From NCBI GenBank assembly GCA_963710375.1, contig CAVPZX010000007.1:22826-86825 (forward strand): 64,000 nt of DNA, in the 5' to 3' direction. Shown in pieces: positions 7,704 to 54,910 of the stretch. Origin of the DNA: Nitrospirota bacterium (GTDB lineage: Bacteria > Nitrospirota > Thermodesulfovibrionia > Thermodesulfovibrionales > Dissulfurispiraceae). The notes below the pieces were generated by a model. It was not told the origin of the DNA. It was given only the letters and a program-made list of their open reading frames with translations, and did no database searches. A program made the translations under genes and the position numbers. The number at the start of each line of letters is the position of its first letter. The stretch's first letter is position 1.

Positions 7704-7729
7704 CCTATTACCTATCACCAATCACCAAT
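7704..7729. repeat. Word-repeat element, single pyrimidine-type arm (complement of GTGATWG words)
   Basis: cctattacctatcaccaatcaccaat lies between convergent genes. Confidence 0.3.
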
Positions 7730-7734
7730 TCGGC

Positions 7735-8271
7735 TCAGCCTCTTGATAGATAAAGAAGCAGGGCCCTTGCTATCGAGAAAAGTCGCAAGTAACGGTCATC
7801 ATAATAGTCCCTGTATGTGTGGGGGAGAGAGACGTAACGCTCTTTGTCTTTGCTGTACGACAGTGTTACCTCGGCAAATATCCCGTCTGTAAGATATATC
7901 CTGTGCGAGTAGTCCTTTGTCGAAGCGAGCACCAGCTTTGCGAAAGTAAGATAGCCGGGGTCCAGGTTTATCGTTCTTTTTCCATTAACCGACAATGAAT
8001 TTTCAATCTCGCAGGTTTTCAACTTGGCTGCAGCAAGGCGGTCTTGTTCTATCAGTTCCTTGAAAAAAATGAATCTCCGGAAGATTGGCTCCCCCAGTTC
8101 CTCTTTATAATGCTCTGAGAAATCCCATTGAATGGCAGGGCTTTCCATAAGCACTTCACCGAAGCAATCTTCAAGATGATGGAGTGATTTGATATAAATG
8201 TCTTCCTTTGAAAACAGCGCTCCGACAAGGAGAAGAGCATTTTCGGGAGGTGTTGGGACTCGTCGCCTCAT
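7735..8271 (-). CDS. DUF4416 family protein
   Basis: 178 aa containing RTINLDPGYLTFAKLVLASTKDYSHRIYL and TYRDYYD, which I recall as DUF4416 signatures. Confidence 0.65.
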   Translation of the reverse strand: MRRRVPTPPENALLLVGALFSKEDIYIKSLHHLEDCFGEVLMESPAIQWDFSEHYKEELGEPIFRRFIFFKELIEQDRLAAAKLKTCEIENSLSVNGKRTINLDPGYLTFAKLVLASTKDYSHRIYLTDGIFAEVTLSYSKDKERYVSLPHTYRDYYDDRYLRLFSIARALLLYLSRG

Positions 8272-8277
8272 TGACGG

Positions 8278-8802
8278 CTATTCGTTTTCGAGGCGTGTCA
8301 GTGTGGCCCTTATGTCAGGCGAGTCCCATTGCAGCGGACCTACTACGTGGTGTTTGAGGGTACCTTTCTTATCTATAATAAAGGTTTCAGGCACGCCGGT
8401 AATGCCGTAAAGCTTGGCTGTGTCGCTGGTATCGATGAGTACGGGAAAAGCAAAACCTTTCGCTTTCAGGTACTCAAGCGCTTTTTCCTGGCCGTCATTG
8501 TAAAGCACAGATATAAAAATCAGCTTGCTATTGCCTTTTTCGATGTCGATCAGGCTCTGAATAGAGGGAAGTTCTTCCTTGCACGTTTCACACCAGGAGG
8601 CCCAAAAATTCAGAAGTACCACTCTTCCCCTGAGATCGGCAAGCCTCCACAGCTTGCCGTCAGTGTCTTTAAGCTCGAAGGCAGGTGCCTCAAGGCCGAC
8701 CGCTGCCTTGCTGACAGGATGTTCCCGGTTTTTTAAAGCTAAGATGATTCCGATAACGCCAAGAACCAGAATAACTGCGAGAATGACCCCTTTCGATTTC
8801 AC
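8278..8802 (-). CDS. TlpA/ResA-like periplasmic thiol:disulfide oxidoreductase (redoxin)
   Basis: N-terminal membrane anchor, FWASWCETCKEELP (CxxC) motif, thioredoxin-fold length. Confidence 0.85.
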   Translation of the reverse strand: MKSKGVILAVILVLGVIGIILALKNREHPVSKAAVGLEAPAFELKDTDGKLWRLADLRGRVVLLNFWASWCETCKEELPSIQSLIDIEKGNSKLIFISVLYNDGQEKALEYLKAKGFAFPVLIDTSDTAKLYGITGVPETFIIDKKGTLKHHVVGPLQWDSPDIRATLTRLENE

Positions 8803-8817
8803 AGACTCAGGGCTCGC

Positions 8818-10872
8818 CTAATTTACCGAAACGAGCATCGAGGTCTCGGCTTCTTTAAAAACCAGCTTGTCCTCCTCTAACACGACTGTCACTAAGGAAG
8901 TATTCTTGAACTTGTTCTTAATGAGGTCTTCTGAAAGAGGGTCCTCAATTTCACGGTAAATCGCCCTGCGCATAGGCCGGGCCCCATATGTAGGCTGATA
9001 ATATTTGTTGAGCAGCCATTCCTTGACCTCTGGAGACACATCGACCGTCAAAGCGTGTTCGGCCAGCTTCTTATTGGTTTCAACAAGCAGCAGATCGATA
9101 ATAGACAGCAGATGTTCCTTCTCCAGTTGGTGGAAGACCACAGTCTCGTCGACACGGTTCAGGAATTCGGGATTAAAGGTCTTCTTGAGTTCGGACAACA
9201 CATTTTCTTTGATCTTATCATACGCACTATCGGAAGTTACGTTGTGAAAGCCTAGCGGTGTTGCCTTTTCGATGATCCGTGCTCCGAGGTTGGAGGTCAT
9301 AATAATAATAGTGTTTCTGAAATCGATCTTCCTCCCGTAACTATCCGTAAGAACACCCTCGTCAAGGATCTGCAACAGCGTATTGAACACATCCTGATGC
9401 GCCTTCTCGATCTCATCAAAAAGTATTACGGAATAGGGCCGCTTCCTGATTTTCTCGGTCAGCTGTCCACCTTCCTCATAGCCCACATAGCCCGGAGGCG
9501 AGCCTGTCAGTCGCGACACGTTGAAACGCTCCATATATTCCGACATATCGACTTTAACAAGAGCGCTTTCATCGTTGAACATGAACTCGGCAAGGGCCTT
9601 TGCAAGCTCTGTTTTGCCGACGCCGGTGGGTCCCAGGAAGAAGAACGAGCCGATAGGCCTGTTTTTGCTCTTCAGTCCGGCACGCGATCTGCGGATAGCC
9701 CGGGCAACAGCCCTTAACCCTTCATCTTGTCCTATAATACGCTGGTGAAGGACTTCTTCCATTTTCAAAAGCTTCTCCGATTCAGTCTCTTCAAGCTTGT
9801 GCAAAGGGATGCCGGTCATTTTTGAAACAGTATAGGAGACATCCTCCTCACTCACAGATGGAATCTCTTTGGACAATGAGTCCTTCCATTTCTTATATTG
9901 AAGCTCGTAGGTCTTTTTCAGCTTGTCTTCCTCTGCCCTGACGGTCTGGGCCTTGTCGATATCGTGCAGACGGACATAGAGGCTTTTTTCTTTCGAAAGC
10001 TGGATCAGCTCGGTCTCCATGTCTCTCAATTCCTGCGGCATGGTTGCCCTTTTGAGCTTGATTCTCGATCCGGTTTCATCTATTACATCGATTGCCTTGT
10101 CAGGGAGAAACCTGTCGGTAATATACCTGTCGGATAACTTAACGGCAGCCACTACCGATTCGTCACTAATCTTGACTTTATGGTGCTCTTCATAACGGGG
10201 CCGTAAACCCTTCAGGATATCTATAGTCGTTTCAGCGGCAGGAGGCTGGATGTATATTGACTGGAACCTGCGTTCCAGCGCCCCGTCCTTCTCGATATAC
10301 TTTCTGTACTCGGAGGGCGTTGTCGCTCCGATGCACTGCATCTCACCCCTTGACAGGGCGGGTTTCAACATATTGGAGGCATCGACCGATCCTTCAGCCG
10401 CACCTGCTCCGATAAGCGTGTGGAACTCATCGATAAAGATAATAATATTTTCGGACTGGAGAATTTCACGCATAACGGCCTTGAGCCTTTCTTCAAACTG
10501 TCCCCGATATTTTGTGCCCGCAATAAGGGCGCCGAGATCCAGCGAAATAATTCTCTTGCCCAATAGGCTGTCAGGCACATCGCCTAAAACGATTTTCTGG
10601 GCGAGACCCTCAACAATTGCGGTCTTGCCGACGCCGGGTTCGCCGATGATGGCAGGATTATTTTTTATCCTCCTGCCCAAGATTTGCAGCACCCTCTCTA
10701 TTTCATCCTCACGGCCTATCACAGGATCAAGTTTCCCTTCTATCGCAAGCAAGGTCAAGTCCCTGCCAAATTCGTCCAGGGCAGGAGTATTGGTTTTCCG
10801 CCGCTCTTTCTGGTTTGGCTGCTGGAACTGCGGTTTAATAGCAAGGTTAATAGTGAGCCTGCCTGGCAGCAA
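8818..10872 (-). CDS. clpC: ClpC-type AAA+ chaperone, D1/M/D2 part. It is separated from its N-domain by a frame change.
   Basis: Contains GEPGVGKTAIVEGLA (D1 Walker A), a short ClpC-type middle domain, GPTGVGKTELAKALA (D2 Walker A) and YGARPMRRAI. The ORF only opens with a TTG at 10872. Confidence 0.85.
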   Translation of the reverse strand: MLPGRLTINLAIKPQFQQPNQKERRKTNTPALDEFGRDLTLLAIEGKLDPVIGREDEIERVLQILGRRIKNNPAIIGEPGVGKTAIVEGLAQKIVLGDVPDSLLGKRIISLDLGALIAGTKYRGQFEERLKAVMREILQSENIIIFIDEFHTLIGAGAAEGSVDASNMLKPALSRGEMQCIGATTPSEYRKYIEKDGALERRFQSIYIQPPAAETTIDILKGLRPRYEEHHKVKISDESVVAAVKLSDRYITDRFLPDKAIDVIDETGSRIKLKRATMPQELRDMETELIQLSKEKSLYVRLHDIDKAQTVRAEEDKLKKTYELQYKKWKDSLSKEIPSVSEEDVSYTVSKMTGIPLHKLEETESEKLLKMEEVLHQRIIGQDEGLRAVARAIRRSRAGLKSKNRPIGSFFFLGPTGVGKTELAKALAEFMFNDESALVKVDMSEYMERFNVSRLTGSPPGYVGYEEGGQLTEKIRKRPYSVILFDEIEKAHQDVFNTLLQILDEGVLTDSYGRKIDFRNTIIIMTSNLGARIIEKATPLGFHNVTSDSAYDKIKENVLSELKKTFNPEFLNRVDETVVFHQLEKEHLLSIIDLLLVETNKKLAEHALTVDVSPEVKEWLLNKYYQPTYGARPMRRAIYREIEDPLSEDLIKNKFKNTSLVTVVLEEDKLVFKEAETSMLVSVN

Positions 10873-11269
10873 GAAGGTTTGCTCCCAGATTTCTTATTAC
10901 TTTTCCGGCAACGCCTTCGTCCTCCCTTACTATACCCAGAAGAAGGTGCTCACTGCCGATATAGTTATGGCCCAGAAGCCTGGCTTCTTCAATAGCTAGC
11001 TCAAGTACCTTCTTTGCGCGGGGAGTAAAGGGGATGTCGCCGAACGTAAGGAGACTGCCTCCAATAGGAAGGTTTTTTTCGACTTCGAACTTTATCTCAT
11101 CAACAGTAAGCCCCATTTTTTTTATGATGGTAATGGGAATACTGTCTTCCTCTCTTAATATCGCCAGCAGAAGATGTTCGGTACCCAGGTAGTCGTTATT
11201 GCGCCTTTCCGCCTCTTCCTTAGCATATATGATGATTTTCCTGCCTCTTTCTGTAAACTTTTCAAACAT
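10847..11269 (-). CDS. clpC: Clp N-terminal repeat domain (Clp_N x2), encoded as a separate 140-aa ORF
   Basis: MFEKFTERGRKIIIYAKEEAERRNNDYLGTEHLLLAILRE ... IGSEHLLLGIVRE is the canonical Clp_N repeat pair. It ends at a TAA that overlaps the downstream ORF by 26 nt in another frame. Confidence 0.8.
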   Translation of the reverse strand: MFEKFTERGRKIIIYAKEEAERRNNDYLGTEHLLLAILREEDSIPITIIKKMGLTVDEIKFEVEKNLPIGGSLLTFGDIPFTPRAKKVLELAIEEARLLGHNYIGSEHLLLGIVREDEGVAGKVIRNLGANLLAARQAHY

Positions 11270-11367
11270 TTTTTCTCTCCTTGCAAATCACGCCTGTTAA
11301 ATATCAACCCTTAAAAAAATTCTACTCTTTGTACAGCGTTAATGTCAACTAAACCGCCAATTCGCTT

Positions 11368-11450
11368 AAAATTTTGAATGCTGAATGCTAAATTTTGAAT
11401 TAATGAAAAAGTCCATAATTTATCATTTAAAATTCAACATTCAACATTTC
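11368..11450. repeat. Word-repeat hairpin element, TGAATGY words
   Basis: ttgaatgctgaatgc..ttttgaatt (11374-11401) faces aaaattcaacattcaacattt (11429-11448). The complementarity is imperfect. Confidence 0.4.
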
Positions 11451-11493
11451 TTTGTTCTTGTATTCTTCTTTACCTATTATATATCTTTAAAGC

Positions 11494-13464
11494 ATGTATG
11501 TAAACGTGGTCTTTCCACTGAAAATACCTCCCCTTACTTATAAGGCCCCTTACGGAGCGCCTGCTGATCTTAGAGGAAGAATAGTACGGGCTCCGCTGAT
11601 GGGGAGAAGCATCCGCGGTCTTGTCATGAGCACCAGCGAAAAGCCGGAAATGCTGATAAAAAAAGATATCAGGGAGATCCAGGAAATTTATCAAAATGTT
11701 ATGTCAACCAGCGGCATTGCATTTCTGCAATGGCTGGCAGACTACTATCTCACTCCCGTGGGCACAGCTCTCAGAAGCAGTTTTTTTGAAGAGATTGCAT
11801 CCATAGTGACGCAAGGGACAGAAGAGCAGGCGGCTGAGGGCGGGCCGGGGGGACATGCTATAATTCCGTGCGAATCTGCAGATAATGCCGCGGTATCAGC
11901 TATCTGCACAAGCATCAGCAAGCATGGATACCGCTCATTCCTTTACCGCGCAGAGTCCTCAGGCGAAGAGAGAGCATTATTAATCTCGGCACTGACGCGT
12001 TTGAAGGACTCTCTTCGTCATGCGGTCATACTCGCGCCTGAAATTGCGCACCTGGAGTACATCGTATCACCCCTCAAAGACCTTTTCGGTGAGCGTGTTT
12101 GTGTGCTACACAGTAAACTTTCGAGAAAAGAGACTGCAGCTGCACTCAAAAGAATCATCACAGATGTATCGGACATTGTTGTCGGGACGCGTTCCGCTAT
12201 CCTTGCGCCTCTCAGGAAGGTTTCATTTATAGCAGTGCTGGCCGAGCACAGCCGTTCATATAAGGCGGAAGAGGGGCTCAGATACAGCGGAAGGGACATA
12301 GCTGTCATGAGGGGGTTTCACGAAAAGGCATGCGTTCTTCTTTCTTCAATCTGTCCGTCGGTGGAATCTGTATATAATGTGAGTGTCGGCAAATATGTGA
12401 TGCTTGAAAATGATAGACATATGTCGAAAGAGGGGCGTGCAGAACGACCTAAAATAAAAATTATCGCTATGGGCGGCGCAAGGGGCGACCGTATGATTTT
12501 GGCCTCTGAACCCATTAAGGAAGCCAAACGCCTTGCCTCGCTGAATGAGCGGTTCCTTTTTCTGTCGAGCAGGAAAGGCTATTCGTTGCTGCGCTGTGAG
12601 GATTGCGGATTTGTGGAGCGGTGCGGGTTATGTGATGTGCCTCTTGTGTTTCATAAGGGAGAGGACGTCCTGAAATGCCAGTACTGTGGGTCCGCAGAGA
12701 AAAGCTCTGTATCGTGCAGTCAGTGCGGAGGAACCGCGATAGGGGCTTATGGCGCCGGCACTGAGAGGGTCAAAGAGCAGGTCGAGAAATTGCTGAAAGC
12801 CGAGGCCCTGCTTGTTGAAAAAGGCAGGTCTGTTGGCCGTGTCATCACTGAGGACGGGGATGACCTTGCTGCACTCGTGGTCGGCACCTCTTATGCAAAG
12901 GGTCTGGCTTACAAAAAAAGTGCCGAGCAAAGGCCATTTGGCGCAGCTGCTTTTCTTAATACGGACGCACTCCTTTTACAGCCGGACTTCCGGCTCTACG
13001 AGAGGGCGTTTCAGGAGATAATTACAGTTGCCCAGCTAGTCAAGAGGGACGGCACTGTATTTCTTCAGACGAAAATGCCTCAGAACAATGTATTGCGTTT
13101 TATCAGGGCCTATGATTTCGACGGCTTTTACCGTTATGAGCTGGAACAGCGGAAAGCTTTTAATAATCCTCCTTATACGAAGCTCGTACTTTTTACTGTA
13201 CCTTTCCAGGACGTTCAGAAAGAGCCGGGACGGGTGCTGGACGAAATGCAACGTGCCGCAGGCGCACTAAGCTCCGGAACTGTGGAAGTCCTTGGTCCTG
13301 TGGAACTCCCGTATCATTCAAAGAAATATCACCGCTGCATACAGTTGCTTTTGAAGTCAAAGGACAGAAATGCGCTGCACGATGCGGCCAGGGCTGTGCT
13401 GAAGGGACTTGGGAAGATAAAAGGCGCAAAAATAGTTGTGGAAGTTGACCCTCTGAAAATCTAA
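11494..13464 (+). CDS. priA: Primosomal protein N' (PriA) homolog with degenerate ATPase motifs
   Basis: N-terminal YVNVVFPLKIPPLTYKAP ... GRIVRAPLMGRSIRGLV (3' DNA-binding domain). Cys-rich region CEDCG..CGLCD..CQYCG..CSQCGG. The Walker A, DExH and motif VI positions are substituted (see findings). Confidence 0.85.
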   Translation: MYVNVVFPLKIPPLTYKAPYGAPADLRGRIVRAPLMGRSIRGLVMSTSEKPEMLIKKDIREIQEIYQNVMSTSGIAFLQWLADYYLTPVGTALRSSFFEEIASIVTQGTEEQAAEGGPGGHAIIPCESADNAAVSAICTSISKHGYRSFLYRAESSGEERALLISALTRLKDSLRHAVILAPEIAHLEYIVSPLKDLFGERVCVLHSKLSRKETAAALKRIITDVSDIVVGTRSAILAPLRKVSFIAVLAEHSRSYKAEEGLRYSGRDIAVMRGFHEKACVLLSSICPSVESVYNVSVGKYVMLENDRHMSKEGRAERPKIKIIAMGGARGDRMILASEPIKEAKRLASLNERFLFLSSRKGYSLLRCEDCGFVERCGLCDVPLVFHKGEDVLKCQYCGSAEKSSVSCSQCGGTAIGAYGAGTERVKEQVEKLLKAEALLVEKGRSVGRVITEDGDDLAALVVGTSYAKGLAYKKSAEQRPFGAAAFLNTDALLLQPDFRLYERAFQEIITVAQLVKRDGTVFLQTKMPQNNVLRFIRAYDFDGFYRYELEQRKAFNNPPYTKLVLFTVPFQDVQKEPGRVLDEMQRAAGALSSGTVEVLGPVELPYHSKKYHRCIQLLLKSKDRNALHDAARAVLKGLGKIKGAKIVVEVDPLKI

Positions 13465-13481
13465 TTTCCCTCAGCATACAT

Positions 13482-13536
13482 CGCGTCGAAAAATATAAGG
13501 AAGGCAGGAGAAGGGTAGCACTTGTTTTTCGACGCG
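13482..13536. repeat. Perfect 12-bp inverted repeat (hairpin) downstream of priA
   Basis: cgcgtcgaaaaa (13482-13493) pairs with tttttcgacgcg (13525-13536), with a 31-nt loop. No T-run follows. Confidence 0.5.
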
Positions 13537-13542
13537 CTGAAA

Positions 13543-13640
13543 GAGTGAATAGTGAAAGGTGAATGGTGAATAGTTAAAAGCTAAAGATTTTTTGTTTTAC
13601 GTTTTTCCTTGAGCCGTTGACGATTCACTATTCACCTCTC
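13543..13640. repeat. Word-repeat hairpin element, GTGAAWR words (7-nt period)
   Basis: gagtgaatagtgaaaggtgaatggtgaatag (13543-13573) faces cgattcactattcacctctc (13621-13640). About 17 of 20 positions are complementary. Confidence 0.6.
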
Positions 13641-13641
13641 T

Positions 13642-14349
13642 TTATTTGTAGAATTTCAGCAACTTCTCAGCTGGGATGCCCATGGAATATAGTGTTATCA
13701 GTGCCCAGTTTCTCAATGTACAGTAAATTACACCTTCTTTTTCCCATCTGCGGGGCGAGGTCCTAACTTTTTCTGAGATAATATAAATTTTGTCCCCCCT
13801 TCTTTTTATCCGCCGCATCAGTTCTACATCTTCCATTAATGGTATCTCCTTAAAATCACCTATCGAATGAAAATAATCCTTACTTATGAATATTGCCTGG
13901 TCGCCGTAAGGTGCGCCTGTAAGGCGGGAACGCAGGGAGGCCGCAATTTCGATTAACCTGAAAATGGGCCTTTTGGATTTTATGCCTAAATCAAAGGCCC
14001 CACCCACGAAGTCTCCTTTCCGCATGACCGAGGAGATTTTATTCAGCGCATTTTTCGGCAGTTCCGTGTCTGCATGCAAAAAAAGCAATATGTCTCCGCG
14101 GGCATTAATCGCACCTTGATTCATCTGATGCGCCCGTCCTTTTTTGCCGAGGATTTTTCGTACTTCACTCTTCTCGATGGCGCTTAGGGTTTCTCCATCA
14201 GGACTGCCATCGACGACTATAACTTCCACCTCTCCATCAAATGGCAGGTCAAAAATGCTGCCGATGGCCTCATTGATCATCGTTTCCTCATGCAGCACAG
14301 GAACAATAATCGAGATTCTATAGTTAGTGTGTGCGCTCTGTGGTTTCAT
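13642..14349 (-). CDS. Family-2 glycosyltransferase (TIGR04283-like)
   Basis: ISIIVPVLHEETMINEAIGSI ... VEVIVVDGSPDGET ... LLFLHADTELP. Confidence 0.8.
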   Translation of the reverse strand: MKPQSAHTNYRISIIVPVLHEETMINEAIGSIFDLPFDGEVEVIVVDGSPDGETLSAIEKSEVRKILGKKGRAHQMNQGAINARGDILLFLHADTELPKNALNKISSVMRKGDFVGGAFDLGIKSKRPIFRLIEIAASLRSRLTGAPYGDQAIFISKDYFHSIGDFKEIPLMEDVELMRRIKRRGDKIYIISEKVRTSPRRWEKEGVIYCTLRNWALITLYSMGIPAEKLLKFYK

Positions 14350-14965
14350 TTTTTCCCTTGCTTTTTAATAGCAACAACAGATCATCAAAGGTATCGACAT
14401 CATTTAATACTCTCAGGACATGAACACTGAGGCCGGATTTCCCCAAAACTTTCATTGTTTGACGAAACACGGAATCAGTGCTCCATTCAATCCCCTGAAA
14501 AATATCAGGCAGAAAGGAGGTCTTGTTAAAGCCTATTAAATAATATCCTCCGTCATGAGCAGGGCCGATTACCGAGTCGCTGGAATCGAGGGCCTTAAAC
14601 GCTTCATTAATTAATGAAATTGACAGATCGGGAATATCACTGCCGACGAGCAAAACTTTTTCAATGCCGTCTGAAAAGGCCTGAACAAAAGCACTCCACA
14701 TTCTTTCGCCGAGATCTCTCCCTTGTTGAGGAGCATAGTAAAACGAATCCCCCAGCCAGCTTTTGATAATTTCGCCGGATTCGGGCGGATAAAAGCAAAG
14801 CCTGAAAAGATAGTTACCGTCCTTCAGGCCTTCCAAAGTGTTGAATGCGAGGCATTTATAGACATCAAGCGCCGCATCTTCACCAATTGCCTTTGCCAGG
14901 CGGGATTTAACTTTTCCCTTTTCAGGTGATTTTATGAATAGCAGGACTGCTGAACGGTCAGACAT
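14324..14965 (-). CDS. DUF2064 (TIGR04282-like) nucleotidyltransferase-fold protein
   Basis: LLFIKSPEKGKVKSRLAKAIGEDAALDVYKCL ... GSDIPDLS ... GPAHDGGYYLIG. I chose the start at 14965 (MSDRSAV) because the longer ORF-track N-terminus (..SVFSVV..) reads through a repeat element. Confidence 0.75.
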   Translation of the reverse strand: MSDRSAVLLFIKSPEKGKVKSRLAKAIGEDAALDVYKCLAFNTLEGLKDGNYLFRLCFYPPESGEIIKSWLGDSFYYAPQQGRDLGERMWSAFVQAFSDGIEKVLLVGSDIPDLSISLINEAFKALDSSDSVIGPAHDGGYYLIGFNKTSFLPDIFQGIEWSTDSVFRQTMKVLGKSGLSVHVLRVLNDVDTFDDLLLLLKSKGKNETTERTH

Positions 14966-14980
14966 ATTTTCCAAAAAATA

Positions 14981-15054
14981 AACCACAGAGAACACAGAGC
15001 TTCTTGGGTTTTTTTTCTGTATCAATAAAGAATCTCTCTGTGAACTCTGCGGTT
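14981..15054. repeat. Word-repeat hairpin element, ACACAGAG words
   Basis: aaccacagagaacacagag (14981-14999) faces ctctctgtgaactctgcggtt (15034-15054). Confidence 0.6.
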
Positions 15055-15073
15055 AAGTTATTTTGAAGCATTT

Positions 15074-15607
15074 TTATTTCTTAAACAGTTTCAGGTACGT
15101 TCCATACCCCTCCTTTTCAAGGGCCTCTTTTGGAATGAAACGAAGTGCTGCCGAGTCCAGGCAGTAACGCTTATGGGTTGGAGGAGGGCCGTCATCAAAA
15201 ACATGCCCTAGATGCGAGTCAGCGTAAAAGCTCCTCACCTCTTTCCTTTTTGTAAAGAAAGTCCAGTCGTCTTTATAAACAATATTTCCAGGTTCCAGAG
15301 GTTTTGTGAAGCTCGGCCATCCGGTGCCTGAATCATACTTGTCAGTTGAAATGAATAGTGGTTCGCCCGAGACAATGTCTACATAGATACCCTCCTTTTT
15401 GTTGTCCCAATATTCGTTGTGGAACGCAGGCTCGGTGTCATTTTTTTGCGTAACATTGTACTGCATCGGCGTCAATATTTTCTTCAGTTCTTCCTGTGAA
15501 GGCTTCACGAAACCCTTGTCATTTCTTTCAGTGTCGGCTGCATGAGCGGACTGCATAAATATCACCCCCAATATAATCATTAGGCACGGTATCATTCTAC
15601 GGAACAT
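15074..15607 (-). CDS. msrB: Peptide-methionine (R)-S-oxide reductase MsrB, secreted form
   Basis: Signal peptide, then [28 protein letters not shown] ... [10 protein letters not shown] ... [11 protein letters not shown]. Confidence 0.9.
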
Positions 15608-15677
15608 AATTGTTCAGCCTCCTTTTTGTGCTTCCTATATATAATGATAGCACGGATCTACAACAAACTAAAGGGCT

Positions 15678-15728
15678 GTGAATAGTGGATAAAGACAGTG
15701 AAAGGTGAATAGTGAATGGTGAAAAAGG
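15678..15728. repeat. Word-repeat element, GTGAAWR words, purine arm only
   Basis: gtgaatagtggataaagacagtgaaaggtgaatagtgaatggtgaaaaagg. It uses the same words as 13543-13573. Confidence 0.5.
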
Positions 15729-15759
15729 AAACGAGCAAAAAAGCAGTGAACTGATTGAT

Positions 15760-15788
15760 TTGACAACACCGGCTTAATCTGCTATACA
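15760..15788 (+). promoter_or_regulatory. Candidate sigma-70 promoter for the 15835 gene
   Basis: TTGACA (15760-15765), 17-nt spacer, TATACA (15783-15788). Confidence 0.4.
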
Positions 15789-15834
15789 TTTGTATAACCA
15801 GCGCTGATGAATTAACAGGAAGCAGACAAAATAC

Positions 15835-16179
15835 ATGGAGGACATGGGCATGAGTTTTAACAAATATACTTATTTATTTTTATTTGCTGTCGTTTTTTTA
15901 TGCGGAGGCTTTATTTATTCTTCAGTATCAGCAGAAGAGCCTAAAGATAAGTCTACTCTTGAGAAAAACAAAACAGAGATACTTAACGATATCGAGCTAT
16001 TTGAGCATAGTGCGCACAGTACCAGGAGTTGTGTATCCGAAGCCAAAACCCCTGAGGAATTGAGGCGTTGTCCTACAGAGGAATCAATACAGAAATATCA
16101 AAGAATTCAGGATGACCTGTTAGAAATAGGGATGACCCCTGATGAAAGAAGAATGTTCGAACTAAGACCACAGAGGTGA
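15835..16179 (+). CDS. Small secreted hypothetical protein
   Basis: 114-aa ORF with an N-terminal hydrophobic signal (YLFLFAVVFLCGGFIYSSVSA). No known motif. Confidence 0.45.
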   Translation: MEDMGMSFNKYTYLFLFAVVFLCGGFIYSSVSAEEPKDKSTLEKNKTEILNDIELFEHSAHSTRSCVSEAKTPEELRRCPTEESIQKYQRIQDDLLEIGMTPDERRMFELRPQR

Positions 16180-16260
16180 ACAAAGCTTTTTTTCACACTC
16201 CTCAGGAAATTGCACGGCGTAACCTTTTGATTGTTTATATCGACTATATAATTAAAAAAT

Positions 16261-16360
16261 AAGGCAAAGGTTAAGGTTAAGGTTAAGAATGTAGGCAAGA
16301 CTTCTTAATATCTTTTTTGCTTTCAGTCCATCTTTCTCAACCTTAACCTTTGCCTCAACC
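16261..16360. repeat. Word-repeat hairpin element, AAGGTT words (6-nt period)
   Basis: aggcaaaggttaaggtt (16262-16278) is perfectly complementary to aaccttaacctttgcct (16339-16355). Confidence 0.7.
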
Positions 16361-16380
16361 TGCTGTTATAAGGAGAAGTT

Positions 16381-16851
16381 ATGAAAACAAGAATATATTT
16401 CACAATATTAGCCCTGGGACTTTTGATGGTCTGTTTTGCGTCAGCCCAGCGGGTCCAGGCCGCGCTTGGCGGTTCTGTCAACTCGATCGAATCGGACAGA
16501 AAAGCAATGTCTGCAGTAAATAGAGGCGTGACAGCCGGCAATGGTTACACGGTCCAGGAGATATACTCGCCATCCAACACAGTGCGGGAATACGTTTCGC
16601 CATCAGGTATTGTATTCGGAATTGCCTGGAACGGGCTGGTCTACCCTGATGTCACTCAGCTTTTGGGCTCCTATACAGACGAATATCAGAAAGCCCTGCA
16701 GCAGACCCCGCGTCAAAAAGGCAGCAGGCACCTGCGGGTGAAGTCGGCCGGTGCTGTTGTCGAGCAGTGGGGACATATGAGGGACCTGAGGGGCAGGGCC
16801 TATGCCCCGGCCTTGATCCCGCCTGGCGTGAGCATTGATGAAATCAAGTAG
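16381..16851 (+). CDS. DUF2844-like secreted protein
   Basis: Signal peptide MKTRIYFTILALGLLMVCFASA. The body resembles what I recall as DUF2844 (..YTVQEI..VREYVSPSGIVFGIAWNG..). It overlaps the next gene by 17 nt. Confidence 0.55.
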   Translation: MKTRIYFTILALGLLMVCFASAQRVQAALGGSVNSIESDRKAMSAVNRGVTAGNGYTVQEIYSPSNTVREYVSPSGIVFGIAWNGLVYPDVTQLLGSYTDEYQKALQQTPRQKGSRHLRVKSAGAVVEQWGHMRDLRGRAYAPALIPPGVSIDEIK

Positions 16852-25548: not shown

Positions 25549-25560
25549 AAAAACAAAGCG

Positions 25561-25688: not shown

Positions 25689-25713
25689 AAAATTTAAGGG
25701 GGAGGGGGCTGCG

Positions 25714-26196: not shown

Positions 26197-26201
26197 AAAC
26201 A

Positions 26202-44504: not shown

Positions 44505-44511
44505 AAAGATC

Positions 44512-44661
44512 GAAGGTGTGAAGATGAGAAGGTGCGAAGTTGAGAAGAGGCAAATCACAAACGCGAAGACTTCTGTCGCAACTTCACAACTTCGCACCTT
44601 CTCATCTTCATCCTTTGACGTTGGCTCACCTTCACACCTTCACAACTTCGCACCTTCGTCC
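44512..44661. repeat. Word-repeat hairpin element, GAAGGTGY/GAAGTTGR words: one purine arm and two pyrimidine arms
   Basis: 44519-44542 (tgaagatgagaaggtgcgaagttg) is perfectly complementary to 44587-44610. A second pyrimidine arm lies at 44628-44661. Confidence 0.8.
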
Positions 44662-45405
44662 TTTAGGCGCCGCCTGCGGTTAATTGCCTCACTTGGGTTA
44701 GTGGTAATCCTTGCAGTACCGGGGTGTAAAGGGAAGGGCGGTCCTCCTGTGCAATCAACTTCTCCGAATGTTTCTGAACAGGCCACAGGAACATCCGGTG
44801 TTGACGCAAAGGGCGAGACCGGAACAATACAAAAAATTATAGTCTCGGGCGCGCCTGCTGCGAATAACACTGCTCTAATCTCTCACATAGAGATTACCCC
44901 GAAAGCCCCCAAGATCGGAGATACGATTACGATAAACCTTATTCCCCAGGCAGGGGTGTTGCTTTCATCAGTTCCAGTTGCCTTTGAATGGAGGAAAAAC
45001 GGAGAAGGTCTGTCAGAGACATCAAACTCGCTCGCGGTAGACAGCAGGTTTAAAAGGGGTGACAAGGTCGAGGCGACCGTAACTGTCGACAGCGGAAAAG
45101 GCCCCAAGCAGTCTTGGCTCGCCTCGGTAGTAATAGCCAATTCTCCACCCGTGATTACTCCGGCAACTGAATTGGTGAAAGTAAACGGCAGCACATTCTC
45201 TTTCAAGGTGAATGCCAGTGATGCGGATGGAGACCCGTTAACATATACTCTAAAATCAGGTCCGCCTGGTACTACTGTTGACCCTGCAACAGGCAAAGTG
45301 ACTTTTACAGTACCGGCTGACAATAAAACAAGCTCGCAGATAGCGGTGCTGGTTTCGGATGGCCATGGCGGTGAGGCTATCTTCAATTTTGAGATGGGGA
45401 AATAA
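44518..45405 (+). CDS. Lipoprotein with a C-terminal Ig-like (He_PIG/cadherin-like) domain; the start codon is uncertain
   Basis: Lipobox ILAVPGC. C-terminal NSPPVITPA ... NASDADGDPLTYTL ... VSDGHGGE. The ORF-track N-terminus (GTG 44518 / ATG 44524) lies inside a repeat hairpin. Confidence 0.6.
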   Translation: MKMRRCEVEKRQITNAKTSVATSQLRTFSSSSFDVGSPSHLHNFAPSSFRRRLRLIASLGLVVILAVPGCKGKGGPPVQSTSPNVSEQATGTSGVDAKGETGTIQKIIVSGAPAANNTALISHIEITPKAPKIGDTITINLIPQAGVLLSSVPVAFEWRKNGEGLSETSNSLAVDSRFKRGDKVEATVTVDSGKGPKQSWLASVVIANSPPVITPATELVKVNGSTFSFKVNASDADGDPLTYTLKSGPPGTTVDPATGKVTFTVPADNKTSSQIAVLVSDGHGGEAIFNFEMGK

Positions 45406-51000: not shown

Positions 51001-51149
51001 CCGATTCCCAGCGTCCCTTTGCGATCGTAATTGTGGGCGGACTGATCACCAACCTGTTGATAAGCGTCTTTCTATTGCCTACACTATACGTATGGATTGC
51101 AAGAGAGGACGATATACTTCCGAAGCCGGAGGAGAACAGTGAACAATAA
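48012..51149 (+). CDS. CusA/CzcA-family heavy-metal-type RND permease, operon 1
   Basis: 1045 aa with 12-TM RND architecture. TM4 motif LGALDFGMIVDGSVVMVEN. Starts directly after the adaptor stop. Confidence 0.95.
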   Translation: MIERLLDFALRNKILVLSIGLLLLIWGIIAFHRLPIEAYPDVADKYAQVITQWPGRAAEEVEQQVTIPIETQMNGMGHLVHLRSLSLAGLSVITVIFDDDSDNLQNRQQVLEKLTLVNLPAGLSPQIGADFSPVGQVYWYTLEGRNPQYDIMELKRLQDWTVFKYLMSVPNIASVSGFGGQTREYQVQVDPNKLVSYGLSIAQVEQALAANNINAGGSFIERGQQAYNVRVVGLMRDTDDIGATILKTQNGTPVRIRDIAIVRQGPKIRLGRIGKAIRHEDGRVIDDDDVVEGIVQMRKGAETESTMAALHAKVAYLNKHILPPGVKIISYLDRDDLVHYTTHTVLRNLTEGIILVVIVLFIFLGNVRSAIIVALTIPFALFFASILLDLRHIPANLLSLGALDFGMIVDGSVVMVENILRRLEESEKKMGSFSQTIHLAAHEVQRPVFFSRAIIITTFLPIFTLQRVEGRLFHPMAWTVCFALLGALLFSILLAPVLASFLFRRREQKWKNPVLVWLLDNYPKALDWSFRHRMLVIGLGAASLCLTVYLATSKVIGSEFLPHLDEGAIWARGTLDSSVGPSEGTRIMNQARLAFAAFPEVTQVVCQIGRTDDGTDPTGFFNTEYFIDLKPRDKWRKQFHKKKDELIEALNKEVEKIPGVDWGFSQPIEDNMEEALSGVKGESAAKLFGGDLKDLEQKAGEIADVMRTVPGIEDLGVFRVLGQPNLNLIVNRAKADRFGINVVDIQDAIQTAVGGNPVTEVLKGEERFDLVVRYQEHFRRTIEDIANIRILAPSGERVSLGQLCDIKVEDGASMIYREANSRYIAIKYSVRGRDLGSTVEEAMKRVNDKVKLPQGYHLDWAGEYESQKRANARLSIIIPVALLMILLLLYMMFKSFKWAILVLGNVAAASIGGFLSLLATGTNFSVSSGIGLLALTGVAVEIGVIMVQYINQLRSRGLHIESAAIGGATRRLRPIIMTMLVATLGLLPAALSHDIGSDSQRPFAIVIVGGLITNLLISVFLLPTLYVWIAREDDILPKPEENSEQ

Positions 51150-51156
51150 AAACACA

Positions 51157-51237
51157 GAAGTTGAGAAGTTGGGAAGTTGGGAAGTTGGGATTTTGGGATT
51201 TTGCTCAGCTTCACATCTTCACATCTTCGCAACTTCA
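51157..51237. repeat. Word-repeat hairpin element, GAAGTTGR words, at czcA-like/OMF junction 1
   Basis: gaagttgagaagttgggaagttgggaagttggga, then ttttgggattttgctcag, then cttcacatcttcacatcttcgcaacttc. Confidence 0.75.
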
Positions 51238-52677
51238 ATTCTGTCCCTTGTGCTAATGACCGGATGCGCGGTTGGGCCAGATTTTCAGCGCCCGTCCGCG
51301 CCTGCTGTCTCCGACTACGCACTGCAGCCCCTTCCCGCGCAAACAGCTTCGGTTGATGTGAAGGGCGGCGAGGCGCAGCGTTTTGTGCGTGACATGGACA
51401 TACCGGGCCAATGGTGGACACTTTTTCATTCCAAACCGCTCAATGACCTGATTGAACAATCGCTCAAGGCCAACCCCGATCTTGAAGCCGCCAAGGCAAC
51501 GCTCCGCGTCGCAAGAGAAAACGTCTATGCGCAGCAAGGCGCGTTCTTTCCAAGTGTGGAAGCCAGTTTCATTCCATCGCGACAAAAGTCTGCGGGAGTG
51601 TTGGCCCCTCCGTTAGCCAATAACAATGATCTCTACAGCCTTTACACTGCGCAGGTTGCTGTTGCATATGCTCCTGATGTGTTCGGAGGCAACCGTAGAC
51701 AGGTGGAATCGCTCAAGGCACAGGCCGAATCGGAGCGCTTCCAGCTCGAAGCTGCTTGCCTGACACTGACATCGAACGTGGTAGCTGCTGCGGTACAGGA
51801 GGCTTCTTTGCGCGGACAAATTGCAGCCACTAAGCGGATTATCGATATCCAGAGTGATACTCTCAAACTGCTGAAACGTCAATACGAGCTGGGCCAGGTT
51901 GCCGGTTTGGATGTGGCGGCACAGGAAGCAGCGCTCGCACAGGCAGAGGCTGCGCTGCCGCCGCTCGAAAAGCAGTTGGCGCAACAGCGCGACCTCCTGG
52001 CACGGCTTGCAGGTTCCTTCCCGAGCGAGAAACTTGCTCAGGAGTTTGAACTCTCTTCGCTGCAACTGCCCCAGGAACTTCCTGTGAGCCTTCCATCCAA
52101 ATTAGTGGAGCAACGGCCTGACGTGAGGTCTGCCGAAGAGCAGCTGCATTCTGCCGGCGCAGAGATCGGCGTCGCAATAGCCAACCGGCTGCCGAATATT
52201 ACGCTTAGCGCCAATTTGGGCAGCAGCGCTACTGCGATCAACAATTTGTTCAGCCCGGGAACTGGATTTTGGGCACTTGCCGGTAATATCACACAGCCGG
52301 TCTTCCAGGGCGGCACATTGCTGCACAGGCAGCGTGCTGCTGAGGCAGCCTATGATCAGGCTGCTGCACAGTATCGCAGCACAGTGCTGACCGCATTCCA
52401 GAATGTGGCCGATAGTCTCCACGCAATACAATCCGATGCCGATGAACTGAAAGCTGCTGCCGCTGCAGAGCATGCCGCAGCCAAGAGCCTCTCCATTGCA
52501 CAACATCAACTCGAATTGGGCGACATCAGTTATTTGGGACTTCTCAATGCCGAACAGACTTATCAGCAGGCGGTGATCAATATGGTGCAGGCCCTTGCAA
52601 ACCGGTATTCTGATACCGCAGCGCTGTTCCAGGCCCTGGGCGGCGGCTGGTGGAACCGCTCTGACGTTAAAGAATAA
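51193..52677 (+). CDS. NodT-family outer membrane factor lipoprotein, operon 1 (start uncertain, possibly TTG 51193)
   Basis: Lipobox LVLMTGC/AVGPDF. OEP repeats. C-terminal ALGGGWW. No ATG lies between the czcA-like stop and the lipobox. Confidence 0.85.
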   Translation: MGFCSASHLHIFATSILSLVLMTGCAVGPDFQRPSAPAVSDYALQPLPAQTASVDVKGGEAQRFVRDMDIPGQWWTLFHSKPLNDLIEQSLKANPDLEAAKATLRVARENVYAQQGAFFPSVEASFIPSRQKSAGVLAPPLANNNDLYSLYTAQVAVAYAPDVFGGNRRQVESLKAQAESERFQLEAACLTLTSNVVAAAVQEASLRGQIAATKRIIDIQSDTLKLLKRQYELGQVAGLDVAAQEAALAQAEAALPPLEKQLAQQRDLLARLAGSFPSEKLAQEFELSSLQLPQELPVSLPSKLVEQRPDVRSAEEQLHSAGAEIGVAIANRLPNITLSANLGSSATAINNLFSPGTGFWALAGNITQPVFQGGTLLHRQRAAEAAYDQAAAQYRSTVLTAFQNVADSLHAIQSDADELKAAAAAEHAAAKSLSIAQHQLELGDISYLGLLNAEQTYQQAVINMVQALANRYSDTAALFQALGGGWWNRSDVKE

Positions 52678-52771
52678 CCATAGCAACCGGTACCGAAAAA
52701 GGGACAAGGAAGAAATATATAAGCTCGTTGCACTGAGATTTAAAAAGTTCCCTACGTCTGAAGGAGATTAC

Positions 52772-53272
52772 ATGAAAAAAACCATAAAGGAAAGCTCAGT
52801 AGTGATGGCTCAAGTTATGCTGCCTCAGGATGCAAATCCGGCCGGTAATGTGCATGGTGGTGTGATAATGAAGCTGATTGATACAGCAGCGGGTGTGGTA
52901 TCTAGTCGTCATGCTCGATCAAACACGGTCACCGCTTCTATAGATATGATGGCCTTCCATAATCCTGTATTCGTCGGTGATCTGCTTTGGCTTAAGGCAT
53001 GCATTAATATGGTTGGCAAGACCTCGATGGAGATTGGTGTCAGGGTAGAGGCTGAAAACTCCATTACGGGCGAGATCAGGCATACATCGTCGGCATATCT
53101 AACATTTGTTGCTCTTGGTCCTGATGGAAAACCTACGCAAGTGCCCGAGCTGATACTGGATACAGATGACGATAGACGGAGGAATCAAGAGGCGATCATG
53201 CGGAGGAAGGCAAGGCTTGAGCTTCGGAGGAAAGAAGAACAATGTAAACAGGATGGTATTTGCCCGATCTAG
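52772..53272 (+). CDS. Hotdog-fold acyl-CoA thioesterase (YciA/BFIT-like)
   Basis: RBS AAGGAG. VMLPQDANPAGNVHGGVIMKLIDTAAGVV ... SSAYLTFVAL. Confidence 0.85.
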   Translation: MKKTIKESSVVMAQVMLPQDANPAGNVHGGVIMKLIDTAAGVVSSRHARSNTVTASIDMMAFHNPVFVGDLLWLKACINMVGKTSMEIGVRVEAENSITGEIRHTSSAYLTFVALGPDGKPTQVPELILDTDDDRRRNQEAIMRRKARLELRRKEEQCKQDGICPI

Positions 53273-53367
53273 GTCTTATAGTGCCTGAAGGACATCCTGG
53301 GTTGTTACACATTGGTCTGTTTTGGTGCAATTAATAAGCGTGGTGCGCCATTAAGTAAGGCAATTTC

Positions 53368-54840
53368 TCATGACTTGTTCCACCAACCCCCGCCTAGCGC
53401 CATAAATAATGCCGCGGTGTCGGCAAAGCGGTTGGCCTTTGCCTGCACGAGATTGATCACTGCCTGCTGATAAGCCTGTTCGGCGGAGAGCAACGATAAG
53501 TAATTAACGTAGCCGAGTTCGAACTGCCGGCGTGCAAGGTCGAGGCTCCGTTTGGAGGCCTGCTCGAAGGCCGCTGCTGCTTTCAGGGTATCGGCATCGG
53601 ATTGGAGCGCATGCAGAGTGTCCGCCACATTTTGGAAAGCTGCGATTACCGTGCTGCGATACTGCGCCTCAGCCTGATCAAGGCCAGCTTCAGCAGCGCG
53701 TTTCCTGTGCAGTAAAGTGCCCCCCTGGAAAATCGGCTGCGTAAGATCACCGGCCAGGGACCAGAAGCCGGTGCCGGGGGTGAATAACTTGCTGATCCCT
53801 ATAGCAGTGGAGCCCAAATCGGCACTGATTGTAATGTTCGGCAGCAAGGCGGCTACCGCTACACCCACCTGGGCGTTGGCAGCATGCAGCTGCTCCTCGG
53901 CGGCACGCACGTCCGGGCGCTGCTCTACAAGTTTGGAGGGGAGGCTTACCGGCAGATCCTGCGGAAGACTGAGCGCCGCAAAATCGAATTTCTCCTCCAG
54001 TTCCTCGTTCGGGAAGCGTCCCGCAAGGGCAGTAAGCAGATCGCGAGTTTGTGCCAGCTGGTTCTGGAGTGGGGGCAAGGTTTGCTGCACCTGGGCAAGG
54101 GCCGCTTCCTGTGCCGCTACATCCAGCCCGGCAACATAACCGAGCTCGAACTGTCTGCGCAGCAGGGCGAGCATCTCGGTCTCGATCTTGACAATGCTGA
54201 GTGTTGCGGAAATCTGAGAGCGCAATGAAGCCTCCTGAATGGCTGCGGCCACCACGTTTGACGTCAGCGCGAGATAAGTCGCCTCAAGCTGGAAACGTTG
54301 AAAATCGGCCTGGGCTGTCAGGGATTCCACCAGTCGCCGGTTGCTGCCGAAAACGTCAGGCGCATAGCCCACACTTACCTGAGCGGTGTGGAGATTATAG
54401 GGTTCTTCCTCGGAACTCAGCACCGGCGAAATGGTGCCTGAGTCCTTTGCGCGGCCGGCTGAATAACCGGCCTGGACAGTGGGATAGTAATAGCCGGCCT
54501 GGGCAGAGACGTTCTCCCGGGCCTGGCGCAAGGCTGCCTTAGCTGCGTCGATAGAGGGGTTAGTCTTAAGCGATTTTTCGATCAGCGCATTTAGCGTAGG
54601 CGACTTGAACAACGTCCACCACTGCTGCGGAATATCCATGCCCATGACAAACCGTTGCTCCTCGCCGCCTGCCACGTTTGCGGCAGATGATATTGAAGTC
54701 AGCGGCTGAACGGTATAGCCGCCATTGGCTGGTGCTGTGGGGCGATGGAAGTCAGGACCCACTGTGCAACCGGCCATTAGCACAAGGGCCAGGAGAGAAG
54801 TTGCGGAGGTGAGAAGTTGAGAAGTTGGGATTTTGCTCAT
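53368..54840 (-). CDS. NodT-family outer membrane factor lipoprotein, operon 2
   Basis: MSKIPTSQLLTSATSLLALVLMAGC/TVGPDF. By eye, roughly 60-65% identical to the operon-1 OMF. I chose the start at 54840. Confidence 0.9.
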   Translation of the reverse strand: MSKIPTSQLLTSATSLLALVLMAGCTVGPDFHRPTAPANGGYTVQPLTSISSAANVAGGEEQRFVMGMDIPQQWWTLFKSPTLNALIEKSLKTNPSIDAAKAALRQARENVSAQAGYYYPTVQAGYSAGRAKDSGTISPVLSSEEEPYNLHTAQVSVGYAPDVFGSNRRLVESLTAQADFQRFQLEATYLALTSNVVAAAIQEASLRSQISATLSIVKIETEMLALLRRQFELGYVAGLDVAAQEAALAQVQQTLPPLQNQLAQTRDLLTALAGRFPNEELEEKFDFAALSLPQDLPVSLPSKLVEQRPDVRAAEEQLHAANAQVGVAVAALLPNITISADLGSTAIGISKLFTPGTGFWSLAGDLTQPIFQGGTLLHRKRAAEAGLDQAEAQYRSTVIAAFQNVADTLHALQSDADTLKAAAAFEQASKRSLDLARRQFELGYVNYLSLLSAEQAYQQAVINLVQAKANRFADTAALFMALGGGWWNKS

Positions 54841-54910
54841 CTTCACATCTTCACATCTTCGCAACTTCGGTTTTTTCTCATCTTCCCAACTTCTCAACTT
54901 CTCAACTTCC
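54795..54910. repeat. Word-repeat hairpin element, GAAGTTGR words, at czcA-like/OMF junction 2
   Basis: 54811-54830 (gagaagttgagaagttggga) is perfectly complementary to 54884-54903. The inner arm 54841-54868 is identical to 51210-51237. Confidence 0.8.

Follow-up and report, generated by a model that had tools for sequence, protein, structure and literature searches.

Tandem-word repeats in bacteria

To our knowledge, arrays of heptamers or octamers are among the most over-represented unexplained repeats of bacteria, and we know of no lineage in which their function or origin has been established. Those of cyanobacteria go by the name of STRR, the reference for them reportedly being Mazel et al. 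1990. Among palindromic repeats, REP/BIME and REPIN elements are made of 20-40-nt units with one conserved sequence and a GTAG/CGTC head, are mobilised by RAYT and have been proposed to act in mRNA stabilisation and attenuation, while Rickettsia palindromic elements (RPE), which Ogata et al. 2000 are said to have described, are reportedly conserved families of 100-150 nt tolerated in frame within protein genes. The present work concerns a 64,000-nt stretch of DNA, hereafter the window, from a Nitrospirota bacterium of the Dissulfurispiraceae (GenBank assembly GCA_963710375.1, contig CAVPZX010000007.1, positions 22,826 to 86,825), which holds 12 elements built from tandem arrays of short words, namely 10 hairpins with an array in each arm and 2 single arrays. 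They are best explained as gene-end-anchored palindromes of short tandem repeats, that is, as the Nitrospirota version of the phenomenon known as long simple sequence repeats (SSRs) or heptamer repeats. The architecture has been described before, and the repeats of the window are a variant of a known but unexplained class, not a new category.

In Xanthomonas campestris and X. axonopodis, GGGAATC heptamers form arrays of mostly about 4 units, 89-93% of them intergenic, and each genome has 70-75 convergent inverted pairs capable of forming stem-loops (Rehm et al. 2015, PMC4692102). These arrays are strongly biased towards positions next to or over the stop codon of the upstream open reading frame (ORF), differ in length between close species, show no association with insertion sequences and are mostly transcribed (PMC4692102). 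The window resembles this system in that 10 of its 12 elements are convergent arrays of the same word with the purine/G-rich one first, and 8 of the 12 lie within 0-18 nt of the stop of the ORF reading in. Xanthomonas, however, has one G-tract word per genome, with G4 potential, whereas here at least five unrelated families of 6, 7 and 8 nt are present, most of them incapable of G4 formation, hairpins outnumber single arrays and three copies lie within coding sequence. In particular, the Xanthomonas word (GGGANTN) is unmatched, as GTGAATA, CACAGAGA, AAGGTT and TGAATGC are without G-tracts and GGG is found only in GAAGTTGGG.

Three tandem heptanucleotides are recorded from Calothrix PCC 7601 and heptamer arrays from Nostoc (PMC4692102; bioRxiv 10.1101/2022.06.06.494920). 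Several families per genome between genes are common to cyanobacteria and the window; the cyanobacterial arrays also lie near start codons or promoters, their words are different, and palindromic pairing is rare in Nostoc but the rule here. Marine Beggiatoaceae carry TAACTGA arrays of 2-6 copies, almost all of them intergenic and in sense orientation between a stop and the next start (MacGregor 2015, PMC4679880). The word gives stops in the forward direction and is open in reverse, arrays within ORFs are in reverse orientation, an inverted repeat occurs in 1 of 170 sets, and a binding site for a translational regulator has been proposed (PMC4679880). The sense orientation between stop and start, with stops forward and an open reverse strand, recurs in the window, although there several word families take the place of the single one and most elements are palindromes. 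With REP/REPIN the elements have in common short imperfect palindromes in spacers after stops, a probable co-transcription and presence or absence varying between relatives; unlike REP/REPIN, their arms are microsatellite-like, the words vary by copy and there is no conserved head. Unlike in a MITE, the internal sequence is not common to copies with the same word, one pair excepted (E51 and E54, see below). As in RPE, palindromes are found in frame, here in the signal peptides of outer-membrane-factor (OMF) and other lipoproteins and in the valyl-tRNA synthetase (ValRS) of a relative, but the elements are built of tandem words and anchored to stop codons.

In copies, excess over chance and location at gene boundaries the arrays agree with the long-SSR or heptamer-repeat class (tandem words of 5-11 nt). 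An initial annotation, made from the bare sequence, did not recognise the architecture as a described repeat family; convergent inverted heptamer pairs are nonetheless known from Xanthomonas (PMC4692102), and arrays from Calothrix, Nostoc and Beggiatoaceae. A Nitrospirota-specific description of such repeats was not found in the literature searched. What is distinctive here is the coexistence of 6-, 7- and 8-nt families, the predominance of palindromes, the swapping or inversion of cassettes at a fixed site and the in-frame coding copies.

Hairpins with arms of tandem words

With Tandem Repeats Finder set to a period of 6-8, at least 2.7 copies and a score of at least 30, 17 arrays are found in the window against a mean of 0.48 and a maximum of 3 in 100 dinucleotide-preserving shuffles, and all 17 sit in spacers or at ORF ends. 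Thirteen of them have an inverted partner (score of at least 24, within 200 nt), a score reached by about 1% of random 400-nt pieces of the window, those few being other elements. In 7 of the 10 two-armed elements, the fold reaches z-scores of -4 to -10 on both strands relative to dinucleotide shuffles, and the remaining three, which are short or degenerate (including those at 32424 and 33095), have values of -2 to -3.6. Arm complementarity is 95-97% in several copies, with up to 97% over 29-30 nt, and irregular words occur at mirrored positions in both arms, which are therefore true inverted copies. The words fall into at least five unrelated families without a common head; the three copies of the CACAGAG family have common termini, ACCACAGAG...CTCTGTGGT, and unrelated loops. 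Since independent assemblies of the same species carry identical sequences of the elements that they cover (25556, 32424 and 33095), the elements are not assembly artefacts. Two independent short-read contigs of this species (L002, at window 25659, and L004, at window 25670) begin within the 3' arm of the CACAGAGA hairpin, which suggests that its words recur at other places in the genome.

The pervasive class of hairpins that the initial annotation reported thus stands out clearly from the shuffled control. Arrays are present at each position that it listed, several word families occur side by side in one genome, the odd peptides of the ORF track are read-through of the elements, the fold z-scores of the 10 hairpins run from -2 to -10, and the elements differ between close relatives. 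Some details have to be amended. The arms are paired in 10 of the 12 elements, those at 7702-7730 and 15678-15728 being single arrays without a partner, and the location is intergenic for 9 of 12, as 44505-44664, 51150-51242 and 54790-54915 lie within the 5' ends of lipoprotein ORFs. The word at 7702, given as the complement of GTGAAWR, is related to it but reads GGTGATT/GGTAATA on the minus strand; the array at 32427-32452 has a short partner at 32456-32469.

Known classes of functional RNA and of mobility genes gave no match. Rfam 15 at gathering score returned nothing in the window, ARAGORN no tRNA or tmRNA there, and no transposase or RAYT, the cognate of REP/REPIN, was found among about 50 of the roughly 58 window ORFs scanned against Pfam; the genes have ordinary housekeeping, regulatory and efflux functions. 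Promoter-like and terminator-like sites are in no excess over shuffles in 7000-17000 and 25000-34000, where 8 elements are covered. Canonical intrinsic terminators were accordingly rejected, given this lack of excess and a single match among the 8 elements, at 32444-32468, on the strand antisense to its genes.

Orientation towards gene ends

In the two-armed copies, the purine-rich arm comes first on the + strand, as had been noticed, but this is automatically true on the - strand too. Indeed, the reverse complement of a purine arm, a loop and a pyrimidine arm again reads purine arm, loop and pyrimidine arm, so that this order is uninformative on gene strand or replication. The actual asymmetry, which is robust, lies in the near absence of pyrimidine-first palindromes as against purine-first ones. 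The purine arm leads in 23 of 25 hairpins of Nitrospirota loci; in metagenomes sampled with a strand-neutral pattern of three GTGAAWR words, paired arrays begin with the purine arm in 17-19 cases and with the pyrimidine arm in 0-1, on contigs with a GC content of 0.37-0.69 and with unrelated loops (19 copies).

Single arrays of the purine type follow the gene strand. In the metagenomes, 20 of them lie in sense, 0-40 nt after a stop, against 2 in the opposite orientation, and the count over all words in the Nitrospirota loci is 28 sense-purine against 8 opposite. In high-GC contigs, long antisense ORFs running through the pyrimidine strand are a confounder; the upstream sense ORFs are real as judged by codon-position GC and by recognisable proteins (TypA, MurG, a Dus-like enzyme and the C-terminus of AcrB), and the through-ORFs of GC-rich contigs are antisense shadows. 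In the window itself, the 8 elements close to stops have the purine arm past the stop of the sense strand. Since single arrays follow stops on the sense strand, the polarity is tied to gene ends and thus to transcription and translation, and from a purine-type array after the stop it follows that a palindrome must be purine-first from either side when it separates convergent genes or occupies an operon spacer. The orientation rule (purine-type array in sense just after a stop, giving purine-first palindromes) is simple and testable and holds across phyla.

On the purine strand the words are composed of 37% A, 33% G, 20% T and 9% C. A stop triplet is present in 35 of 49 words on this strand and in 12 of 49 on the other, and the 5' arms close on average 1.8 frames against 0.8 for the 3' arms. 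Stop content was considered as the cause of the polarity and rejected, because the purine-first order is kept in the CACAGAGA and GAATCGGG hairpins although these are free of stops; the more general property is therefore purine richness or C-poverty.

Table 1. Tandem-word elements of the window, with their words, fold z-scores (two values where both strands are given) and surroundings
Position	Strand	Element	Fold z	Setting
7702-7730	-	Single array without partner; + strand TACCTAT TACCTAT CACCAAT CACCAAT, - strand purine-type ATTGGTG/ATAGGTA	about 0	Occupies 37-nt spacer of convergent DUF498 (+, stop 7697) and DUF4416 (-, stop 7735)
11370-11448		Hairpin, words TGAATGC / CATTCAA	-4.3 / -5.2	Between divergent Clp_N gene (-, start 11269) and priA (+, start 11494)
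13538-13646		Hairpin, GTGAAWR words (5' arm 4, 3' arm 2)	-5.8 / -6.8	Between convergent priA (+) and GT2 glycosyltransferase (-); GT2 stop (13642-13644) adjoins the arm that is purine-type on the - strand
14976-15060		Hairpin, CACAGAG family, termini ACCACAGAG...CTCTGCGGT	-5.4 / -4.9	Between msrB (-, stop 15074) and DUF2064 gene (-)
15678-15728	+	GTGAAWR array of purine type, single and unpaired, about 7 words		Between divergent msrB (-) and ORF 15835 (+)
16255-16366		Hairpin, AAGGTT / AACCTT hexamers	-5.9 / -5.6	DUF2844 gene start (16381) 15 nt past its end
25556-25694		Hairpin, CACAGAGA octamers; 30-nt arms, 97% complementary, 67-nt AT-rich loop	-10	Starts 14 nt after ValRS stop
32424-32472		Short AAGGTT hairpin, AAGGTTAAGGTT-GAGAAA-AACCCTTGACCTT	about -2	Adjoins scpB stop (32473, -); NlpC/P60 gene start (32404, -) 20 nt beyond its end
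33095-33162		Degenerate CACAGAG-family hairpin, ACCACAGAG...CACTGTGG	-2.2 / -3.6	Between divergent scpB (-) and DsbC-like gene (+)
44505-44664	+	Three-arm element, GAAGGTGY/GAAGTTGA octamers; purine arm 44512-44547 pairs with either 44579-44610 (29 nt, 97%) or 44625-44664 (40 nt, 83%)	-7.9	Begins 8 nt past upstream stop (44504)
51150-51242 (E51)	+	Hairpin, GAAGTTGG x4 - loop GGGATTTTGGGATTTTGCTCAG - CTTCACAT x3		Inside OMF-1 ORF; begins 8 nt past RND pump gene stop (51149)
54790-54915 (E54)	-	Three-arm element, family and loop as E51; 86% identical to E51 in + orientation		Inside OMF-2 ORF; provides on the - strand the TGA stop (54902-54904) of the second RND pump gene

Turnover and copying between genomes

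The closest relatives found through ValRS are Nitrospirota or Thermodesulfovibrionia metagenome-assembled genomes (MAGs), with an amino acid identity of 94% for L007 and of about 70-72% for L008-L011 and L015. L007, which has about 89% nucleotide identity to the window, is cleanly without elements at 25554-25685 and 14971-15069: in place of the 14976-15060 hairpin its orthologous spacer measures 10 nt, and of the 25556-25694 hairpin the whole 132 nt are missing. In parallel, L007 has elements of its own where the window has 4-30 nt. Of the two sites at which filled and empty states can be compared, one has no target-site duplication and the other an imperfect one (CATATTTT/CATTTTT). One L007 element ends in a word like the window's native TAACCTC, a single case that raises the idea of an origin from local seeds.

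The junction between the pump gene and OMF-1, the gene of an OMF lipoprotein, can be compared in four close genomes, the window included. In the window it holds the GAAGTTGG hairpin; in L210, with flanks 95% identical, a three-arm element with an inner hairpin that matches the window's in reverse complement (90%, 72 nt); in L211, with flanks 92-93% identical, a hairpin of another family (AGGTAA / CCTTAA hexamers) of nearly equal length; and in L088, with flanks 84-88% identical, no element and an ordinary signal peptide, MNRNKGVSVFLFACVFFCLSTGC. More distant OMF-1 orthologues carry at the same codon octamer hairpins of GAAGTTGT (L087, 77% amino acid identity) and GAATCGGG (L089, 79%). One site is thus found empty, with a hairpin, with the hairpin inverted and with a hairpin of another family in genomes 88-95% identical, which makes it a natural allelic series for expression tests. 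Just 3' of OMF-1, close relatives have a PhdYeFM/ParE toxin-antitoxin pair (L210:11712-12300; L211:4376-4964), of which the window keeps at 52697-52754 only a 58-nt remnant of the parE 3' end (93-95% identity).

E51 and E54 belong to paralogous operons that face opposite ways and are separated by 3.6 kb. The two elements have the same chromosomal orientation and 86% identity, loop included, against 71% identity for the genes of these operons. Their likeness would fit gene conversion between palindromes, which can align either way; such a conversion would also account for the sole apparent regularity of the + strand, namely the common orientation of the two loops. Within the species, no copy-number difference was seen at 25556, 32424 and 33095 among three independent assemblies (L001-L003, 99.76-99.98% identical), where L003 has four gap openings that were not located and are possibly sequencing errors, and the element at 44505, E51 and E54 lie outside the same-species contigs. 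On that time scale, the covered elements therefore do not behave as hypermutable contingency repeats.

Arrays of other words are found in other Nitrospirota loci (18 arrays in 22.8 kb of L008; also L009, L011 and L023), and tandem-word arrays occur in loci of Nitrospinota and Desulfobacterota as well. A giant element lies in Desulfobacterales bacterium HSG2 (L039:5744-6049), with about 22 copies of CGGTTCA, 21 nt and about 16 copies of GTCAACT; its arms measure 110-160 nt and neither is clearly purine-rich. At L165:870-1104, a palindrome with GTGAATG arms has a 200-nt loop in which three copies of an unrelated REP-like hairpin (GGACGGGGTTGCAAACCCCGTCC) are nested.

Copies inside lipoprotein genes

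The element at 44505-44664, E51 and E54 each have the upstream gene's stop on one side and a lipoprotein lipobox on the other. The first is within an Ig-like lipoprotein ORF (ATG 44524, Cys codon of the lipobox 44725-44727), E51 within that of OMF-1 (GTG 51139, Cys codon 51265-51267) and E54 within that of OMF-2 (ATG 54912-54910, Cys codon 54768-54766), where an ATG in the loop would give MSKIPTSQLL.... GTG 51139 has the Shine-Dalgarno (SD) sequence GGAGGAG, overlaps the stop of the pump gene in a coupled arrangement and opens a frame that continues through the hairpin to LMTGC, and it appears to be the only credible OMF-1 start. The same is found in L087 and L089, in which, as for E51, a coupled start codon upstream of the hairpin is the only plausible one. 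In the three lipoprotein-gene elements of the window and four of relatives, the gene frame is free of stops in all 7, each of the other two frames being closed by 1-8 stops. The purine arm encodes residues rich in K, E, R and G, and the pyrimidine arm residues rich in L, F, S and T that run into the hydrophobic core, an example of such a repeat-encoded signal peptide being VKSKKQVEVKVKVEKKAKNSCFTLVVFSLTLTFTFACLLAGC of L211. The coding copies are thus apparent cases of a hairpin translated within a signal peptide, with which they would probably be removed.

The annotation at NCBI of the same DNA starts OMF-1 (51139-52677) at MTGC (P0121, 473 aa) and the Ig-like lipoprotein (44524-45405) after the lipobox (P0130, 218 aa), which would leave both proteins without a signal peptide. 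In practical terms, the elements mislead gene callers and break short-read assemblies.

Further in-frame copies occur in the ValRS of a Thermodesulfovibrionia MAG (L023:10001-12874), the intact ORF of an essential gene into which, by comparison with the window and L008, at least four segments are inserted in frame. These include a hairpin of the type AGAATCGG x4 / CCGTTTCA (peptide AESENRRIGESENSPFHRVSVPP) and a heptamer array (QKMLNAKCKMQ), and the gene also has two pyrimidine-first palindromes (PLTPPLLRGGEKGG, PSPSRGEGKGG). In many OMF orthologues of other lineages (P0076, P0107, P0109, P0114, P0118, P0005 and P0026), the lipobox is preceded by a long, odd peptide with the look of a repeat-encoded one, such as PPLKKGDRGGF...PPSPPFAKGG or GFFLFTAHCSLLT. 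A hotspot for the insertion of palindromes may exist at the pump-OMF junction in general.

Proposed function and alternative explanations

On balance, the elements are probably REP-like, co-transcribed spacer hairpins that affect transcript stability, processing and the coupling of cistrons and that spread by slippage and copying between loci. The unit is an array in which a 6-8-nt word, purine-rich, C-poor and usually containing a stop triplet, recurs in 3-6 imperfect copies; it is placed on the sense strand about 0-20 nt from a stop codon, mostly with an inverted copy of the array 5-125 nt away. The palindrome thereby offers a purine arm to genes arriving from both sides, from which the apparent polarity arises. 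Co-transcription is expected because the elements fill operon spacers and gene ends. In the mRNA, stems of 15-30 bp would fold, several of them with 20-30 bp in the range of RNase III, and the hairpins could then protect or process the transcript in the manner of intercistronic or 3' REP sequences and uncouple neighbouring cistrons. In coding copies, the purine arm would serve as the charged start of the signal peptide and the pyrimidine arm would lead into its hydrophobic core. Turnover would proceed by slippage and by the transfer of copies from one locus to another, through gene conversion between palindromes and inversion of the core; no enzyme encoded by the elements was found in the material described above. 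In the course of species divergence, elements come and go, turn round or give way to others.

Several observations weigh against this explanation. Four of the 12 window elements are away from stops, three of them between divergent genes and one 76 nt downstream. Rapid loss without visible consequence, as in L007 and L088, indicates that single copies are dispensable, and the unrelated loops of copies with the same word, E51 and E54 excepted, are awkward for the copying of whole elements. The sense RNA is more stable than the antisense RNA in only 3 of 7 co-directional cases, and this inconsistency leaves no sign that selection acts on the RNA as opposed to the palindrome in the DNA. For the coding copies, the chance of the open frame is about 0.004-0.04 when only cases not chosen for long N-termini are counted, and the independent cases are few. 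Transcription, folding, processing and translation of the elements are moreover all read from sequence. With no strand-specific signal of RNA stability and with single copies dispensable, a function is unproven.

The functionless account, under which the elements are neutral mutational debris, is possible though not likely. Slippage would create the arrays and template switching their inverted copies, which would be kept only where harmless, as in spacers just past stops and in cleavable signal peptides; the dispensability of single copies, the fast turnover, the lack of a consistent stability advantage of the sense RNA and the high variability of words and loops all agree with it, and the excess of heptamer SSRs has been put down to polymerase slippage (PMC4692102). 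Slippage alone nevertheless does not predict the strict purine-first, sense-after-stop orientation, since past a stop an array of the pyrimidine type would do just as little harm, and debris would explain neither the limited vocabulary and common termini within a genome, nor the 95-97% complementarity that several copies retain, nor the constant copy number of the covered elements within the species, where arrays are not hypermutable. Clean presence and absence at orthologous sites, the 9-nt inverted termini conserved among CACAGAG copies, the near-identity of E51 and E54 at their two sites, the RPE-like in-frame insertions in ValRS of a relative and the contig breaks at arrays, which imply many genomic copies, would all suit non-autonomous elements of MITE or REPIN type, moved in trans by a transposase encoded elsewhere (e.g. 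a hairpin-recognising one of RAYT/IS200 type). Such mobility is rated unlikely, as loops of the same family are unrelated both in the window and in the 19 metagenome copies, the two empty sites are without a convincing target-site duplication, no transposase was found among the scanned window proteins or in the fetched neighbourhoods, and the same word in contigs of GC 0.37-0.69 is unlike one element family. A more far-reaching proposal, which we regard as distinctly unlikely, is a cross-phylum gene-end system with a strict purine-first rule, combining directional punctuation of transcription or translation with exchangeable, translated signal-peptide cassettes. If true, the sense RNA would be C-poor, stop-rich and Rho-resistant and the antisense RNA C-rich and Rho-loading; a single hairpin would specify the charged start through its purine arm and part of the hydrophobic core through its pyrimidine arm, and the same mRNA hairpin would make translation of the outer-membrane factor depend on ribosomes completing the upstream pump gene.

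The related idea that the elements are directional transcription insulators, letting sense transcription pass on C-poor, Rho-resistant RNA while antisense or read-in transcription is killed through C-rich, G-poor, Rho-loading RNA, with pairing of the palindrome masking the C-rich arm, draws on the composition of the words (9% C and 33% G on the purine strand, hence 33% C and 9% G in the antisense RNA), on the strict sense orientation after stops and on the fact that the elements are not intrinsic terminators. As composition is its whole basis, CACAGAGA words are not C-poor and palindromes look alike from both directions, it appears quite improbable. The initial annotation had instead derived the polarity from the direction of replication or insertion and had taken the arms to mimic SD and anti-SD sequences, with the uniform order on the + strand, the co-oriented loops of E51 and E54 in opposed operons and a GGAGG in one arm in its favour. 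This reading is largely refuted and very improbable: the purine-first order survives reverse complementation and carries no strand information, the loop is inverted in the orthologous element of L210, single arrays follow the gene orientation (20 to 2 and 28 to 8), the GC skew switches sign within the window without a change in the elements, and most words (GTGAATA, CACAGAGA, TGAATGC) lack an SD core. Equally remote is phase variation, in which lipoprotein genes would be switched on and off as 7- or 8-nt words slip within the 5' part of their coding sequence. Octamers do lie in the ORFs of three surface or efflux lipoproteins, where one word gained or lost is a frameshift, but the elements covered in the three same-species assemblies do not differ in copy number, imperfect words suppress slippage and most elements are outside genes. 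The orientation rule and the natural allelic series at the pump-OMF junction allow the question of array function to be tested.

Other features of the window

Two features of the window stand apart from the word hairpins. An 18-nt tandem duplication (TCCCGGAGGCGGGTTTAA x2.1) at 43341-43384, within ORF 42943-43974, is unrelated to this class of repeat. ClpB is encoded on the - strand in two ORFs (8818-11269) that overlap by 26 nt, Clp_N at 10847-11269 (140 aa) and the AAA+ body at 8818-10872 (684 aa), for which a frameshift, an assembly error and a genuine split are all possible.

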